From sequence record OZ335958.1: a stretch of 64,000 nucleotides of DNA; one strand, given 5' to 3'. Under the pieces are notes generated by a model. It saw only the letters and a program-made list of their open reading frames with translations, searched no databases and was not told where the DNA came from. Of this stretch, positions 39,543 through 50,851 are shown in pieces. The position numbers were made by a program, and so were the translations under genes. Source of the stretch: a phage. How positions within the stretch are numbered: the stretch's first letter is position 1; every line of letters starts with the position of its first letter.

Positions 39543-40016
39543 TTATTTGAATGATTTGACGTACTGAATAGAGCCTTTGCTATTCACGAAAGCGATTTTA
39601 CCATTTTTGTTATACATGGTAGCAGTACGCTGATAGCCATAAGTTTGCTTACCAGATTGATAACCAACTAGTGCGAAATTATCTTCACCCATTTTATTCT
39701 GCTTAGCGCGGATACGTTCATGACCGTGCGCCATAAGAACCTTAGCATCACCAGTTGCAATGGATCTACGAGTTTTTTCATCTTCAACTGTATTAACAAA
39801 GTCGTCAAATGAATCAAATTTAGCATGAGATTTATTATACAGTTTTCCATCTACTGCATAATTATATCCCTGTACATCCATCTCAACTTCTGTACCATCA
39901 TCTAATACAGCAGTGATTTTTTGACCTTTTTTAAATTTCAAAAGATCAGTAAAAGATTCAGCAATAATTTGAGAATTAATAGCTGCTTCAGTGATAAATT
40001 CTTGATATGTTTTCAT
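39543..40016 (-). CDS. internal-protein-like capsid-targeted protein
   Basis: 157 aa; N-terminus MKTYQEFITEA matches the T4 internal protein capsid targeting sequence; body unlike IPI/II/III. Confidence 0.55.
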   Translation of the reverse strand: MKTYQEFITEAAINSQIIAESFTDLLKFKKGQKITAVLDDGTEVEMDVQGYNYAVDGKLYNKSHAKFDSFDDFVNTVEDEKTRRSIATGDAKVLMAHGHERIRAKQNKMGEDNFALVGYQSGKQTYGYQRTATMYNKNGKIAFVNSKGSIQYVKSFK

Positions 40017-40025
40017 GTGTTTCCT

Positions 40026-40442
40026 TTAAATGTAAATATTTTTGCCGTAGTATTTATACCAGTGTGGCTTCATTAAAATTTTTTCATCGAGTCGTTGTTG
40101 ACTCAATTTAATAGCCGATTTGCATTGGTTATAATCATTTTTCCATTCTGCTGGAATATCGCTGATGTCAGGAACTTCAGTATCTTTTATACTAAACCCA
40201 CGTTTTAAGCATTCCGCTATAATGTCTGATTGACGCTTTCGCAAAAATTCTAACTTATCATAAAAGAACGTAACATGACCAGAACCTAAAATAAACTCGG
40301 AAGATATTTTAAAATCTTTAACCCGCTTACCATTTGCCACATGTTTACGAACTATACCAAAAACACGTGGCAATTCACGGTATTCTGCGATTAAATGTTG
40401 ATCAGCAAGTTCAGATACTAAAGTCAAATTAATACGAGTCAT
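40026..40442 (-). CDS. denV: endonuclease V (pyrimidine dimer DNA glycosylase)
   Basis: 138-aa [31 protein letters not shown] recognised as T4 DenV. Confidence 0.85.
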
Positions 40443-43314: not shown

Positions 43315-43908
43315 TTATTTCAGAGAATTAATGTATTCCTGAACATCGGCAGAGGTAGTTTCAACCCCAGAAATATTACCATTAAAGGTTTCAACTCGAG
43401 CAAGGGTATCTTCAATATCAACCTTAGTCAGTGCTGCAATTTCAACTACATCATCGGCAGTACTAATTCCAAGGGCATTTGCCGCACGAGTTTCACGGAT
43501 ATATTCCAATTTAACTGCAAGCTCTTGACGAGCATCATCTAACTCAACTACTTTCTTGGCGATTTCAATTCGCATTTCAGCATAACCGTCAGCCTTAGTA
43601 GTCAACTGCTCAGCTGTTCGACGATATAGTAAACCGAGTTTAGCATGCATTGTTACATCTTGGCCTTCGGAAAGAAGTTTACGAATTTCACGCTCTTTTG
43701 ATTCGGCCTGTCGATTCTTTTCGATAACAAGTTCACGAATACGTTTTTCTTCGTTAATAGATTTAACAGAAGCAGTTTTTAGATCTTTAATTTTATCAAG
43801 TAGTTTTGCTGCTGCAGCAGTATACTGTTCTTCGACAGATAGATTTTTAGCCATAGCAGAACCAAGTTTAGTGCGAATAAACTCAACAATTTTCTTCAGT
43901 GTGTTCAT
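43315..43908 (-). CDS. coiled-coil protein with PspA/IM30-like character
   Basis: 197 aa, largely helical, charged heptad-rich. Confidence 0.4.
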
Positions 43909-44012
43909 AGTATTTCCTTAGGTTGATTAAGATTTAAAATCCGTAAAAGTAGTATTATACTCTATCATCAAGTTACAGGCTCATAATATCTCAATCATGA
44001 GCCTATGTAAAC

Positions 44013-44276
44013 TTATTTCATATTATTGAAATATTCTTCTGCGATTTCGTCGTTATCGTGGTAAACTTTAGAAGACAGTTTAACATAACCTTCTGCTGTG
44101 AACATATTAATCACAACCTTTACAGTATACCACTGTCCGTCTTCATTACCCATTACTGCGTAAGTTTCAAACATCGGATGGTCAGGACCGATAACTTTAA
44201 TATCATTCACTGTACGACCGAAATCTTCTGAAACGCATTTCATAAAGAAGTTGAACAGTTCGCCGTAATTATCCAT
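44013..44276 (-). CDS. hypothetical protein
   Basis: ATG at 44276 with GGAG RBS (87 aa); track start 44330 lies inside the promoter. Confidence 0.4.
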   Translation of the reverse strand: MDNYGELFNFFMKCVSEDFGRTVNDIKVIGPDHPMFETYAVMGNEDGQWYTVKVVINMFTAEGYVKLSSKVYHDNDEIAEEYFNNMK

Positions 44277-44320
44277 TTCATTCTCCAAGTTGTTTTTCTG
44301 TATCAGTAGTTGATAGTTGT

Positions 44321-44350
44321 ATAGTACCATGGAAGAACAGGGATGTAAAC
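44321..44350 (-). promoter_or_regulatory. T4 early-type promoter
   Basis: Minus-strand GTTTAC (44350..44345), 18 bp, TACTAT (44326..44321). Confidence 0.5.
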
Positions 44351-44482
44351 CGTTTTGTGAAAAAATTTTTAAAAAGTTTTATGGAATTCTGGGGCAGGGA
44401 GGGGCAATTAAAAGGTAGGATAATATATTATAAAGGGTATAAACTAAATGATGCCTAGAGAGGCCCGGAAAGGCCTAGATAC

Positions 44483-44511
44483 CAAAAAGCCCCAACCTTT
44501 TGGTCGGGGTT
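44483..44511 (-). terminator. rho-independent terminator
   Basis: Minus-strand CCCCGACC-AAAA-GGUUGGGG followed by CUUUUU, just after ORF 44519..44992. Confidence 0.55.
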
Positions 44512-44518
44512 AAGAATG

Positions 44519-44992
44519 TTATTTGATTTGTTTAGCAGACCAAATGCGGTCTTTAATAATTTTTTGAATGTCTTCAACATACTCAAGAGAGTGAACGTGT
44601 GGATTATCTTTGAAACTATAAGCACGGGCTAACTTTTGGCCTTCGGTTTTGATTACTAAAAGCTCTTTAAGGATAGCTTCATATTTAGCGATAATTCCTT
44701 TAACGATATTTTTTTCTTGTGCCGCTTTAGGATCTGCTTTAGGAGCAGGTTTACCCGAAGGCTTTGCAAAAGCAGCTCCAGTAGCAACTAAACTTTTCCA
44801 GGCCATACTAACTGCATTTCCCGTAAATCCTTCTGCTTTCATGTCGCGAGCAAATTGGAATCGTGATTCGTCAGAAGCATCTTTATAGGAATATTTACCC
44901 GCTGCAATGGCTGCTTTTGCGACAGCTTGAATTTCGGTGCTAGATGCTTCATTTAACACCGCTTCATTTAAAAATTGAGCATATGATTTCAT
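44519..44992 (-). CDS. internal-protein-like capsid-targeted protein
   Basis: 157 aa; N-terminus MKSYAQFLNEA resembles the internal protein targeting sequence; Ala/Lys-rich; own late promoter. Confidence 0.5.
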   Translation of the reverse strand: MKSYAQFLNEAVLNEASSTEIQAVAKAAIAAGKYSYKDASDESRFQFARDMKAEGFTGNAVSMAWKSLVATGAAFAKPSGKPAPKADPKAAQEKNIVKGIIAKYEAILKELLVIKTEGQKLARAYSFKDNPHVHSLEYVEDIQKIIKDRIWSAKQIK

Positions 44993-45032
44993 CTTATTTC
45001 CTGTTTTAATTCGTGGATTTAATATACTACTA

Positions 45033-45040
45033 TATTTATA
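45033..45040 (-). promoter_or_regulatory. late promoter TATAAATA
   Basis: Minus-strand TATAAATA about 40 nt upstream of the 44992 start codon. Confidence 0.5.
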
Positions 45041-45070
45041 CTAAAAAGCCCCAACCTTTCGGTCGGGGCT
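45041..45070 (-). terminator. rho-independent terminator at end of stable-RNA region
   Basis: Minus-strand AGCCCCGACC-GAAA-GGUUGGGGCU followed by UUUUUAG. Confidence 0.55.
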
Positions 45071-45376
45071 AAGCCTTGCGGCAACCTTGTCGGGGTTCCA
45101 CCTGCTAAGGCAAGTGTTTGTACGAAACGCCGGGATTCGAACCCGGTTATTAAGTAGTTGACGCTACTCAATATTTTTAAAAGGCCATATCTCGACCATA
45201 TCCGAACGTTCCGTCAAAAACGCTACTCGGCTTACGGCAAAGATATTTCCTCGAATCGATAATTCGGTGCGCCGTTTCAGCTGTGATAGTAAAGAACCAG
45301 AACACAGTAAAACTGTGGGAGGAACTATACTCCAGGGAACATCAGTCCGACGACTTACCGGTAACGACCCGGTTTC
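45071..45376 (-). ncRNA. candidate stable small RNA(s) of the tRNA region (T4 species 1/2-like)
   Basis: No protein ORF; tRNA T-arm-like CGGGUUCGAAUCCCG on minus strand; bounded by terminator; T4 has stable RNAs next to tRNA-Arg. Confidence 0.4.
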
Positions 45377-45727
45377 TTAATATTCTTTTAAAGTATCAAT
45401 CTGTTCACGACGTTTACGCCATAAATCAATTGCTTCATACGCAGATTCAGCATTTCTAATTAGTCGGCATTTGTGTAAAGACTTATGATTTTGATATTGT
45501 GTAGATAACGGAATTTTATCTAAAAGGTCTTTACGTTCAAAGTATTCATAACCATCTAAGCCAAATGAACGATTTTTAAGAAATTGCCAATGACCGTATT
45601 CGTTTTCGACATAAACATAATCTGCGTGCTGATAAAGCAAATTAATTACACGTTCAGAAATAACAGTGTCATTATGATTAAAATAGAATGTTAAATCATG
45701 AACTACTAAATAAACATTACCTTTCAT
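45377..45727 (-). CDS. hypothetical protein embedded in the tRNA/stable-RNA cluster
   Basis: 116-aa ORF with protein-like composition between tRNA-Arg and the RNA region. Confidence 0.45.
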   Translation of the reverse strand: MKGNVYLVVHDLTFYFNHNDTVISERVINLLYQHADYVYVENEYGHWQFLKNRSFGLDGYEYFERKDLLDKIPLSTQYQNHKSLHKCRLIRNAESAYEAIDLWRKRREQIDTLKEY

Positions 45728-45743
45728 ATTTTCCTCACTTAAT

Positions 45744-45820
45744 TGGTCGAGGCAGTAGGGATCGAACCTACGACCCAGGACTTAGAAGGTCCTTGCTCTT
45801 CCTTCTGAGCTATGCCTCGG
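45744..45820 (-). tRNA. tRNA-Arg (anticodon UCU)
   Basis: Cloverleaf folded by hand; anticodon loop CUUCUAA; CCA encoded. Confidence 0.8.
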
Positions 45821-45823
45821 ATT

Positions 45824-45898
45824 TGGCGGACGTGATAGGATTCGAACCTATAACCAATCGCTTAACAGGCGATCGCTCTGCCATTGAGCTACACATCC
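45824..45898 (-). tRNA. tRNA-Asn (anticodon GUU)
   Basis: Cloverleaf folded by hand; anticodon stem AUCGC/GCGAU, loop CUGUUAA; T-loop UUCGAAU; CCA encoded. Confidence 0.65.
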
Positions 45899-45903
45899 AA
45901 ATT

Positions 45904-45989
45904 GGTGGGGAGTGATGGAGTCGAACCACCCGAGTCGCAATGACAATGGATTTACAGTCCACACCGCTACCTCTACGGGATAACTCCCC
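45904..45989 (-). tRNA. tRNA-Tyr (anticodon GUA), type II
   Basis: 86 nt; anticodon loop CUGUAAA; long variable arm; CCA encoded. Confidence 0.65.
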
Positions 45990-45997
45990 AAATTAAT

Positions 45998-46073
45998 TTG
46001 GTGGCCCTGGGTGGAATTGAACCACCATCTGGCGATTATGAGTCGCTTGCTTGAACCTTCCAGCTACAGGGCC
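45998..46073 (-). tRNA. tRNA with CAU anticodon (Ile2-type or Met)
   Basis: Anticodon loop CUCAUAA; T-arm GGUGG-UUCAAUU-CCACC; CCA encoded. Confidence 0.65.
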
Positions 46074-46074
46074 T

Positions 46075-46150
46075 TGGTGCTGATTGACGGAATCGAACCG
46101 CCGACCTTCTCATTACAAGTGAGTTGCTCTACCTACTGAGCTAAATCAGC
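46075..46150 (-). tRNA. tRNA-Thr (anticodon UGU)
   Basis: Anticodon loop CUUGUAA; 1 nt from the preceding tRNA. Confidence 0.75.
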
Positions 46151-46155
46151 AAAAC

Positions 46156-46245
46156 TGGCGGAGGCGATAGGATTTGAACCTATGAGTCGCCGGAGCGACT
46201 GCCGGTTTTCAAGACCGGTGCATTAAACCACTCTGCCACGCCTCC
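46156..46245 (-). tRNA. tRNA-Ser (anticodon UGA), type II
   Basis: 90 nt; anticodon loop CUUGAAA; sequence recognised as T4 tRNA-Ser. Confidence 0.85.
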
Positions 46246-46247
46246 AG

Positions 46248-46321
46248 TCTCCATACAAGGATTTGAACCTTGGACCTCCTGATCCCAAATCAGGCGCTCT
46301 ACCAAACTGAGCTACACGGAG
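46248..46321 (-). tRNA. tRNA-Pro (anticodon UGG), CCA not encoded
   Basis: Anticodon loop UUUGGGA; 2 nt upstream of tRNA-Ser (dimeric precursor arrangement). Confidence 0.75.
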
Positions 46322-46331
46322 TAAATTAAAT

Positions 46332-46405
<74 letters not shown>

Positions 46406-46410
46406 AAATT

Positions 46411-46497
46411 TGGTGCGAGAAGTGGGACTCGAACCCACAAGGAAATCATTCCGCAGCATTTTAAGTGCTGTGCCTTTACCAATTTGACCATTCTCGC
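46411..46497 (-). tRNA. tRNA-Leu (anticodon UAA), type II
   Basis: 87 nt; anticodon loop CUUAAAA; long variable arm. Confidence 0.8.
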
Positions 46498-46498
46498 G

Positions 46499-46571
46499 CT
46501 GGGAATAAAGGACTCGAACCTTTGCATCCTGGAATCAAAATCCAGTGCCTTACCAACTTGGCTAATTCCCA
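46499..46571 (-). tRNA. tRNA-Gln (anticodon UUG), CCA not encoded
   Basis: U1-A72 acceptor pair, anticodon loop UUUUGAU; 1 nt from tRNA-Leu (Gln-Leu dimer). Confidence 0.75.
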
Positions 46572-48111: not shown

Positions 48112-48345
48112 TTATTTTTTACGAAAAATTGATTTATTTTCTGCTGCCCATTTTTCAATAACTGCAGCAGGACCAGTAACAACAATTTTATCACCGTAAT
48201 CTTCTGCGGCGAGTTGACCGAAATTATCTAATGCATCACGAAGAACTCCATGAGGCATTTCACCCATTTTATCTTTCTTGCCGGTGTAAATAAACTCAAC
48301 TTTTACATCAGAAGATTCAGCGATAAATTCTTGATAAGTTTTCAT
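48112..48345 (-). CDS. internal-protein-like small protein (IPI position)
   Basis: ATG at 48345 gives MKTYQEFIAESSDV... (77 aa), exact capsid-targeting N-terminus; body unlike T4 IPI as recalled. Confidence 0.55.
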   Translation of the reverse strand: MKTYQEFIAESSDVKVEFIYTGKKDKMGEMPHGVLRDALDNFGQLAAEDYGDKIVVTGPAAVIEKWAAENKSIFRKK

Positions 48346-48424: not shown

Positions 48425-48682
48425 TTATTTTAAATCTTCTAATCGTTTCTTCATCTTAGAACCATTTTTAGCAATTTCTCCTGCATCGGAGCATAATGCT
48501 AAAAGTGCTTTAACTTTCGTTTGGTCTCCTTTAAAAGATGAAGGATCTACTGCAGCAGCAAGTTCTTTAATACGAGAGAAAAGACGCTCAGCTTCAGCTA
48601 AAGCCATTCCAAGCTTTACTTCCATACCGTGGGAAGATTCAGTGATAGTAGTTTTTGCAGCAAACTCTTTGAAAGTTTTCAT
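48425..48682 (-). CDS. internal-protein-like small protein
   Basis: 85 aa, N-terminus MKTFKEFAAKTTITES (targeting-sequence-like), helical Ala/Lys-rich body. Confidence 0.45.
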   Translation of the reverse strand: MKTFKEFAAKTTITESSHGMEVKLGMALAEAERLFSRIKELAAAVDPSSFKGDQTKVKALLALCSDAGEIAKNGSKMKKRLEDLK

Positions 48683-50214: not shown

Positions 50215-50745
50215 TTAAACTTCTGCTATAATTTTACCATCTTTTTCTACTTGAAAATACGTATAAGGAATCGTTGCTGTGCATACTAAAGCTGGGTCTG
50301 AATCTTCCGTGTAGCTGAATTCTACTTCAGATAGGTCAGAAACCCAGGGCTTATAAAAATTTATTGACATCACGATTTCAGTTTTACTATTATCTAAAAT
50401 GTAAAGCGTAATGTATTCAGGACCTGTTTTTTGGGCAGTATTTTCACCTGTAAGATAGTTACTAGTTCCTAGCATCCATTCATACATTCCTATCCACGAC
50501 TTAAGCTCTTCATCAACTATAAATCTCACGATGAGTGGATCGTACTCAAATGTAACTCCTGGACGTTGTGCTCTACCTAGTCCAAACGGCCCAGTCACGG
50601 TATCAGTAACAGGTATCCTAATTCCTGGAATAGGAACTGACTGAGCATTTAAAGTAAAAGCAGATGTAGTATTACTATGCGGTATTGATACTACAAAGTT
50701 AGTTGTATTTGCTTGGTTAAAAATTTGTTGTAGTGCTTGCGACAT
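50215..50745 (-). CDS. 3: tail completion / sheath stabiliser protein
   Basis: Internal ATG at 50745 gives 176 aa (MSQALQQIFNQ...), the T4 gp3 length. Confidence 0.75.
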   Translation of the reverse strand: MSQALQQIFNQANTTNFVVSIPHSNTTSAFTLNAQSVPIPGIRIPVTDTVTGPFGLGRAQRPGVTFEYDPLIVRFIVDEELKSWIGMYEWMLGTSNYLTGENTAQKTGPEYITLYILDNSKTEIVMSINFYKPWVSDLSEVEFSYTEDSDPALVCTATIPYTYFQVEKDGKIIAEV

Positions 50746-50851
50746 ATATTCCTCATAATGCTTCATAAATGTTGGTGGTATAATGGGTCTAAGTCCCTTC
50801 CATTCAATTCCAATTAGAACAAACAATAGAAAAGAATGGAAGATAATAGAA

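Follow-up and report, generated by a model that had tools for sequence, protein, structure and literature searches.

A gene at 44519..44992 on the minus strand of phage sequence record OZ335958.1, analysed here as one stretch of 64,000 nucleotides (nt; the window), probably encodes an unannotated internal protein (Ip) of the T-even phages at a third locus, which has the tRNA/rnaD/rnaC cluster on one side and e.8 on the other. The 157-residue product would be made late in infection, packaged into the head, trimmed there and injected. The window is a Tequatrovirus sequence of the RB32/ime09/AR1 type (96-98% identical across the gene region). An original prediction, made from the letters of the DNA, had placed an internal-protein-like gene with an Ala/Lys-rich body in this interval. 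The open reading frame (ORF) indeed starts with ATG and runs for 157 codons, the N-terminus reads MKSYAQFLNEAVLNEAS, and the composition is as described (17.2% Ala, 13.4% Lys), with an isoelectric point (pI) of 9.5. The internal-protein-like reading is supported by the conservation of the leader across the family, by its rank behind the three ip genes of the window, by matches of a close homologue to Ip families in PHROGs and by a recognised Ip with nearly the same leader.

The Ips of T4 carry an N-terminal capsid targeting sequence that directs them to the prohead core and is cut off by the prohead protease (PMC3012670, PMC12373910, bioRxiv 10.1101/2022.04.14.488369), and apart from this leader they are mutually unrelated (PMC3012670, PMC12373910). 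A class of variant Ips was defined by Repoila et al. 1994 (cited in PMC12373910).

Gene and leader

The substitution pattern marks the ORF as a real gene under purifying selection, with a ratio of nonsynonymous to synonymous substitution (dN/dS) of 0.076-0.11 against RB32, RB27 and Mosigvirus APCEc01 and dS of up to 1.6. A tblastn search with the protein matched 512 phage records, 468 of them with a coverage of at least 80%; RB32, AR1, ime09 and Bas42 are among the carriers, and phage ECP2301 encodes an identical copy. In RB32, AR1 and the other records and source names inspected, the protein is labelled hypothetical throughout. The literature search found no mention of the RB32 gene (RB32ORF133c), and the AR1 record holds no note on virion presence at its homologue. 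In phage HY01, whose copy is 98.7% identical, one of five major virion bands on sodium dodecyl sulphate polyacrylamide gel electrophoresis was assigned to a "hypothetical protein" by matrix-assisted laser desorption/ionisation, and the protein is identified in Fig. 9 of that paper (PMC5201272).

That the ORF is non-functional, either arisen by chance or a decaying remnant in a duplicated terminator region, is highly improbable, and the selection signature effectively refutes it. Such an ORF could well be missing from T4, T2 and PST, as this one is, and could be truncated or interrupted elsewhere, as in KpV477 (in-frame stop) and in G28 and SfPhi01 (split copies). It would not be expected to give the low dN/dS at such high dS, full-length copies in hundreds of genomes of several genera, a conserved Shine-Dalgarno sequence, promoter and terminator, or an AlphaFold2 model that is confident over most of the body.

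The recognised ip genes in the window, all on the minus strand, are Ip4 (39543..40016), which adjoins e and has a late promoter at 40058..40051, and Ip6 (48112..48345) and Ip5 (48425..48682), which lie at the ipI locus and have early-type promoters in repeated promoter/stem-loop cassettes. When the ORF starts of the window were searched for the pattern M-[KR]-x-[YF]-x-x-[FYL]-[ILVM]-x-E, three ORFs were found, namely Ip4, Ip6 and the 157-residue ORF. Ranked by similarity to known targeting sequences, the ORF stood fourth among 953 candidate starts, after Ip4, Ip6 and Ip5. The leader score by itself is only suggestive. The longest gene 3 ORF (50215..50766, minus strand) begins MKHYEEYMSQ at its upstream ATG, and chance leader-like N-termini are possible.

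No part of the protein family, which spans several genera of the Tevenvirinae, is more conserved than the leader. In an alignment of 12 family sequences, with identities to the window protein down to 26-30%, M1 and F7 are invariant, L8 is nearly so, and L/I-x-E follows the leader in all 12. The pattern common to the family is M-x-x-[Y/F]-x-x-F-[L/V] followed by L/I-x-E, with the consensus M-K-[ST]-Y-x-E-F-L-x-E. A homologue that is 78% identical (P0003) has the leader MKTYNEFLNES, and its first residues (1-20 to 1-47) match PHROGs 7857 (IPII family), 3499 (Ip5), 3966 and 15565 with E of about 0.01-0.04. Bona fide Ips match one another's PHROGs through the N-terminus in the same manner. The annotated Ip4 orthologue of Klebsiella phage KpV477 begins MKTYKEFLNES, 10 of 11 residues being identical to the P0003 leader; a recognised Ip thus has the FLNE variant. 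The description of MKSYAQFLNEA as targeting-sequence-like thus gains from its rank, from the conservation within the family and from the L-x-E motif at its end.

The L-x-E↓A sites at the end of the leader are the motif expected for the gp21 prohead protease, and cleavage there is predicted. A 15-bp tandem duplication at 44948..44971 on the minus strand, TTAAATGAAGC(GGTG) followed by TTAAATGAAGC(ATCT), doubles the predicted site LNE↓A; RB32-type copies have this duplication, and the RB27 and Mosigvirus homologues do not. Residues 1-14 are disordered in the AlphaFold2 model, ahead of the folded helical body.

The conservation of the leader also bears on another reading, that the product is a late cytoplasmic protein, never packaged, with a leader that is a remnant or a coincidence and a role, for example, in lysis timing, superinfection exclusion or nucleic-acid handling. 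Many T4 late promoters do drive non-structural genes (e lysozyme is an example in the window), a similarly scoring start of a non-Ip gene exists in the window, and no packaging data for the protein were found in the literature. A leader kept by coincidence would, on the other hand, not remain the most conserved segment at 26-30% identity with L-x-E in every member, and close homologues have an almost canonical leader. In the protein, neither a transmembrane segment nor an enzymatic domain nor a known fold was detected. As the family conserves the leader above all else, a non-packaged late protein is the less likely reading, and we consider it quite improbable.

Cassette, promoter and terminators

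On the minus strand of the window, ten tRNA genes (46571..45744) are followed by a 116-residue ORF, rnaD, rnaC and an 80-nt trailer ending in terminator T1, and then by the late promoter, the 157-residue gene, terminator T2, an early-type promoter, e.8 (44013..44330), e.6 and the genes beyond (Table 1). In an alignment, T4 is near-identical through rnaD, rnaC and T1 and then passes directly into the sequence found after T2 in the window. T4 thus has a single terminator and no 157-residue gene, whereas the window has a 559-bp cassette made of the late promoter, the gene and a second copy of the terminator. The site is empty in PST and T2 as well. The gene is dispensable in the way that Ips are, being absent from T4, T2 and PST and present in the 512 records matched.

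The cassette is bracketed by a 36-nt direct repeat that comprises the terminator hairpin and GTAT. Within the window the 26-nt core of the repeat is confined to these two places (0 expected), and the RB32 annotation describes RB32ORF133c as "flanked by 34 bp imperfect direct repeat". Recombination between the terminator copies would explain the empty site in T4, T2 and PST. Tequatrovirus RB27, Mosigvirus APCEc01 and Jiaodavirus KpV477 have the gene at the same locus, with the tRNA/stable-RNA cluster before it and e.8/e.6 after it. Since the locus is common to three genera, it is more economical to suppose that T4, T2 and PST lost the gene through recombination between the repeats than that it was gained repeatedly, although the direction is not provable. 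A recent gain by RB32-type phages had been considered and was dropped, the family being found at the same locus in three genera. More distant members of the family are found in Yersinia phage fHe-Yen9-01, in Cronobacter phage VP8 (Muldoonvirus) and in metagenomes. The KpV477 homologue (L005 2495..3028) has an in-frame TAA where KP01 has a Lys codon and is annotated as a 78-residue fragment; this interrupted copy is either a pseudogene or a sequencing error.

The 48-nt spacer upstream of the gene holds TATAAATA on the correct strand, and the late promoter proposed in the original prediction, 40 nt before the ATG, was borne out in position and distance (45040..45033). ATAAATA is retained in seven of seven orthologous upstream spacers from three genera and metagenomes; the first position of the octamer is T, A, C or G, and the rest of the spacer has diverged. 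The octamer of T4 late promoters occupies -13 to -6, and by this rule a transcript start at about 45027 is predicted. The Shine-Dalgarno sequence, promoter and terminator are conserved among orthologues.

Two near-identical terminators had been proposed to bracket the gene, and they agree with the 36-nt repeat at 92% identity. The folding energy is -20.3 kcal/mol (z -4.65) for T1 and -15.1 kcal/mol (z -2.49) for T2, and the two are the best of six terminator-like sites in 43800..45800, where 1.3 were expected. The T1 hairpin is also present in T4 by alignment, and T1 was accordingly rejected as a private insulator of the gene and assigned to the stable-RNA cluster, whose terminator it is. It nevertheless has the effect of shielding the gene from upstream transcription. 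Of the insulated late unit that had been proposed, the bracketing by terminators stands, and the upstream terminator has to be assigned to the tRNA/stable-RNA unit that T4 shares. In the distant members VP8 and L011 the gene overlaps an upstream ORF and is without its own promoter; judged from the sequences compared, an insulated single-gene late unit is typical of the family and not universal.

Table 1. Position of the candidate gene, its signals and the neighbouring features in the window
Feature	Position	Strand	Remarks
Candidate internal head protein coding sequence	44519..44992	-	RB32ORF133c, AR1_137, PHROG 2280
Leader, codons 1-15	44948..44992	-	Decapeptide MKSYAQFLNE and predicted prohead-protease sites L8-N-E10↓A and L13-N-E15↓A
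Shine-Dalgarno AGGAAA	44997..45002	-	4 nt before the ATG; read from the sequence
T4-type late promoter TATAAATA	45033..45040	-	Octamer; last base 40 nt from the ATG
Terminator T1	45041..45070	-	Stem 45070..45047, 10 bp, 7 GC, then TTTTT; closes the tRNA/rnaD/rnaC unit
Terminator T2	44484..44509	-	Stem 44509..44490, 8 bp, 6 GC, then CTTTTT; predicted to end the single-gene late transcript
Direct repeat, upstream copy (36 nt)	45038..45073	-	92% identity, spacing 559 nt
Direct repeat, downstream copy (36 nt)	44479..44514	-	3' sequence continues exactly as T4 after its single terminator
rnaD homologue (T4 species 2 stable RNA)	45266..45380	-	By alignment with T4; boundaries approximate, centre diverged; directly after the 116-residue ORF
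rnaC homologue (T4 species 1 stable RNA)	45121..45259	-	Near-identical to T4; same stretch annotated rnaC in RB27; last gene of the cluster
Early-type promoter of e.8 (44013..44330)	44321..44349	-	TTTACA, 17 nt, TACTAT with TG; conserved with T4

A scan with Rfam 15 at E <= 1 returned no family for the rnaC/rnaD region and none overlapping the 157-residue gene; the T4 rnaC and rnaD stable RNAs appear to be without a curated covariance model. The 116-residue ORF (45377..45727, minus strand; PHROG 3355, unknown function) lies between tRNA-Arg and rnaD and is absent in T4 and present in T2 and AR1. Compared with T4, the window is without segB and has an extra tRNA-Asn, tRNA-Tyr and tRNA with a CAU anticodon. 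The e.6 homologue (43315..43908, minus strand) belongs to PHROG 1203, of unknown function; several GenBank records call it "host specificity protein", a label that is probably annotation drift and not functional evidence.

Protein body and possible function

The AlphaFold2 model of the protein is all-alpha (mean predicted local distance difference test score 74, predicted template modelling score 0.45) and is confident for most of the body. It consists of a three-helix N-domain (residues 18-71), a Pro/Lys/Ala linker (72-87) and a long helical hairpin (88-154); residues 108-110 of the body form a third L-x-E motif. Both the N-domain, with its motifs GKYSYKD and AWKS, and the Pro/Lys linker are conserved among the family members. 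The alignment shows two unrelated C-terminal modules, one ending in ...IIKDRIWSAKQIK in Tequatrovirus, Mosigvirus and some metagenomic members and the other ending in ...VGDVGRHYKKL in the phages of Klebsiella, Yersinia and Cronobacter.

Searches with the protein gave no match above threshold in Pfam or NCBIfam, and in PHROGs no informative family (PHROG 2280, "unknown function"). An exhaustive search with a hidden Markov model against 1.84 billion representatives returned 13 relatives, all unnamed. A homology and structure search had been proposed as a check on the gene; it showed a leader like that of Ips, and the body was, orthologues apart, without a sequence or fold match in Pfam, PDB or BFVD.

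If the product is an Ip, the following course can be proposed. Late in infection, RNA polymerase modified by gp55 and gp33 would start at TATAAATA and give a transcript some 540 nt long, with its end at T2 near 44485, and T1 of the stable-RNA cluster would keep early and middle transcription out of the gene. The decapeptide MKSYAQFLNE would act as a capsid targeting sequence and bring the protein into the scaffolding core of the prohead. There, gp21 would cut the leader after Glu10 and/or Glu15, and the expected new N-termini are AVLNEASSTEIQAVAK (cut after E10) and ASSTEIQAVAK (cut after E15). The product would be a basic, all-helical protein of 142-147 residues with a pI of about 9.5, lying with the DNA. 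The trimmed protein would be injected with the genome and would then counter one of the first-response defences of the host, the most plausible being a modification-dependent (type IV/GmrSD-like) nuclease. The anti-defence role is our best guess at the function and is drawn purely by analogy with Ip1, Ip2, Ip3 and Bas37_0260.

Several observations weigh against this reading. We infer packaging from about ten residues, and the leader of the window copy shares five of its ten residues with the canonical MKTYQEFIAE (S3, A5, Q6, L8 and N9 differ, S3 and L8 conservatively). In a profile comparison this leader did not match the internal-protein PHROGs. The next-ranked start in the window, the upstream ATG of gene 3, scores 27 against 29 for the ORF and is without the terminal Glu. 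Beyond the leader, BLASTP found no similarity to Ip4, and hhalign against IPII and IPIII aligned the N-terminus alone, with a probability of 8-12%. Foldseek against PDB and BFVD returned orthologues only and no significant fold match. The gene lies outside the two known ip loci. The octamer TATAAATA was counted 12 times in the window against 10.7 +/- 3.1 expected, which is no enrichment. Since the count is at chance level, the promoter call for this gene rests on position and on the conservation of ATAAATA, and enrichment was dropped as promoter evidence. Virion proteomics, N-terminal sequencing or a transcript map for the gene or its homologues were looked for in the literature and none were found. 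Finally, the conservation of the family across genera with a dN/dS of about 0.1, unlike that of the hypervariable Ip genes, suits a housekeeping function in the head at least as well as it does an inhibitor in an arms race.

This conservation is unusual for Ips, and because of it a structural or DNA-associated role in the head stays alive. In that case the protein would be brought to the prohead core to assist assembly or scaffolding, or to serve as structural filler associated with the DNA, and would not be an injected anti-defence effector; it could be degraded by gp21 like gp22, gp67 and gp68, or it could stay with the DNA and neutralise charge. An Ala/Lys-rich, all-helical protein of pI 9.5 with a long C-terminal helical hairpin and a third L-x-E motif in its body would suit such a part, and proteins engaged in an arms race are not as a rule so conserved. 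The heads of T4, T2 and PST are, however, normal without the protein, which is thus not needed for assembly. The leader is of the type of injected Ips and not of scaffold proteins, as judged from what is generally known of T4 and from PMC3012670; the leaders compared here were known targeting sequences. The swapping of the C-terminal module between lineages suggests adaptation to different targets. On balance, a purely structural role appears unlikely.

An injected internal protein remains the preferred reading for the gene in the window. Its extension to the whole of PHROG 2280 is more tentative: the family might be a multi-genus family of injected head proteins, with a third ip locus in the Tevenvirinae, in which the exchangeable C-terminal module would set the specificity for host defences that T4 and T2 cannot counter.

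Relation to known internal proteins and significance

The protein shares several features with IPI, IPII and IPIII of T4. Both have an MKT[Y/F][Q/K]EF..E-type leader ending in L/I-x-E for gp21, both are small, dispensable and found in only some T-even phages, both have a basic mature protein (predicted here for the 157-residue protein), and there is no similarity among the members beyond the leader. The differences are in position, regulation and evolution. The T4 genes lie at 57B-tRNA.4 or e-denV, and the 157-residue gene between rnaC and e.8. Early-type promoters stand directly upstream of T4 ipI and ipIII, whereas the 157-residue gene has a late promoter only. Its leader is more diverged, and its family is conserved across genera under purifying selection, with packaging and target as predictions.

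Among the named variants Ip4-Ip9, taken from the annotations of RB32, PST and AR1, the resemblance is that these too were recognised purely by the common leader and form single-gene cassettes between repeats. Ip7 and Ip9 of RB32 are annotated as "flanked by 43 bp direct repeat", compared with 34-36 nt for the 157-residue gene. The repeats of Ip5, Ip6, Ip7 and Ip9 consist of a terminator and an early promoter; for the 157-residue gene it is a terminator and a late promoter. Ip4 of the window is also 157 residues long and also has a late promoter, but has no sequence relation to the protein described here. The latter, unlike Ip4-Ip9, has never been given an Ip name, and the named set (IpI-IX) maps to the two other loci (57B-tRNA.4 and e-denV/vs.8), away from the place between the rnaC terminator and e.8.

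The cassette also recalls PeSL elements, which join a stem-loop to an early promoter in T4-like phages (Arbiol et al. 2010; Comeau et al. 2014, PMC4122927). In both, repeated regulatory stem-loops surround a variable gene, and presence or absence between close relatives comes about through recombination of the repeats. The unit repeated here is, however, the 36-nt terminator alone, the adjacent promoter is of the late type, and the next early promoter lies about 135 nt further on, so that no stem-loop joined to an early promoter was found.

The GmrSD enzyme that is blocked differs among Ip1, Ip2 and Ip3 (PMC12373910). No relationship of the 157-residue protein to these three was found beyond the leader; they are themselves mutually unrelated, and a lack of similarity does not therefore exclude a like function. 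Bas37_0260 carries the conserved Ip motif at its N-terminus and is encoded at the ipI locus. Its disruption lowers fitness on E. coli K-12 BW25113 and not on a K-12 variant without McrA, McrBC and Mrr, a dependence that points to K-12 type IV restriction as the target (bioRxiv 10.1101/2025.11.20.689424). Like the 157-residue protein, Bas37_0260 is an Ip-leader protein outside the T4 set that was found by its N-terminal motif; it differs in its locus and in having experimental support, the 157-residue gene being at another locus and known from its sequence.

Recent studies have shown for Ip1, Ip2 and Ip3 (PMC12373910) and for Bas37_0260 (bioRxiv 10.1101/2025.11.20.689424) that injected internal proteins of T4-like phages inhibit type IV restriction enzymes specifically. 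These studies began from known ip loci, and the gene described here lies outside them; this position, together with its absence from T4 and T2, is probably why it was overlooked. As the mechanism of the Ip class is already well known, what would be new is the 157-residue protein as a member of the class and the third locus. The cassette is a clean example of gene gain or loss through recombination between duplicated terminators. More than 500 sequenced phages carry the gene, and many of these are candidates for therapy or biocontrol against E. coli O157, Shigella and Yersinia. If it is packaged, the protein would add one more first-response effector, and since T4 and T2 are naturally without the gene, adding it to them could, if this reading is true, reveal a new pair of defence and counter-defence.

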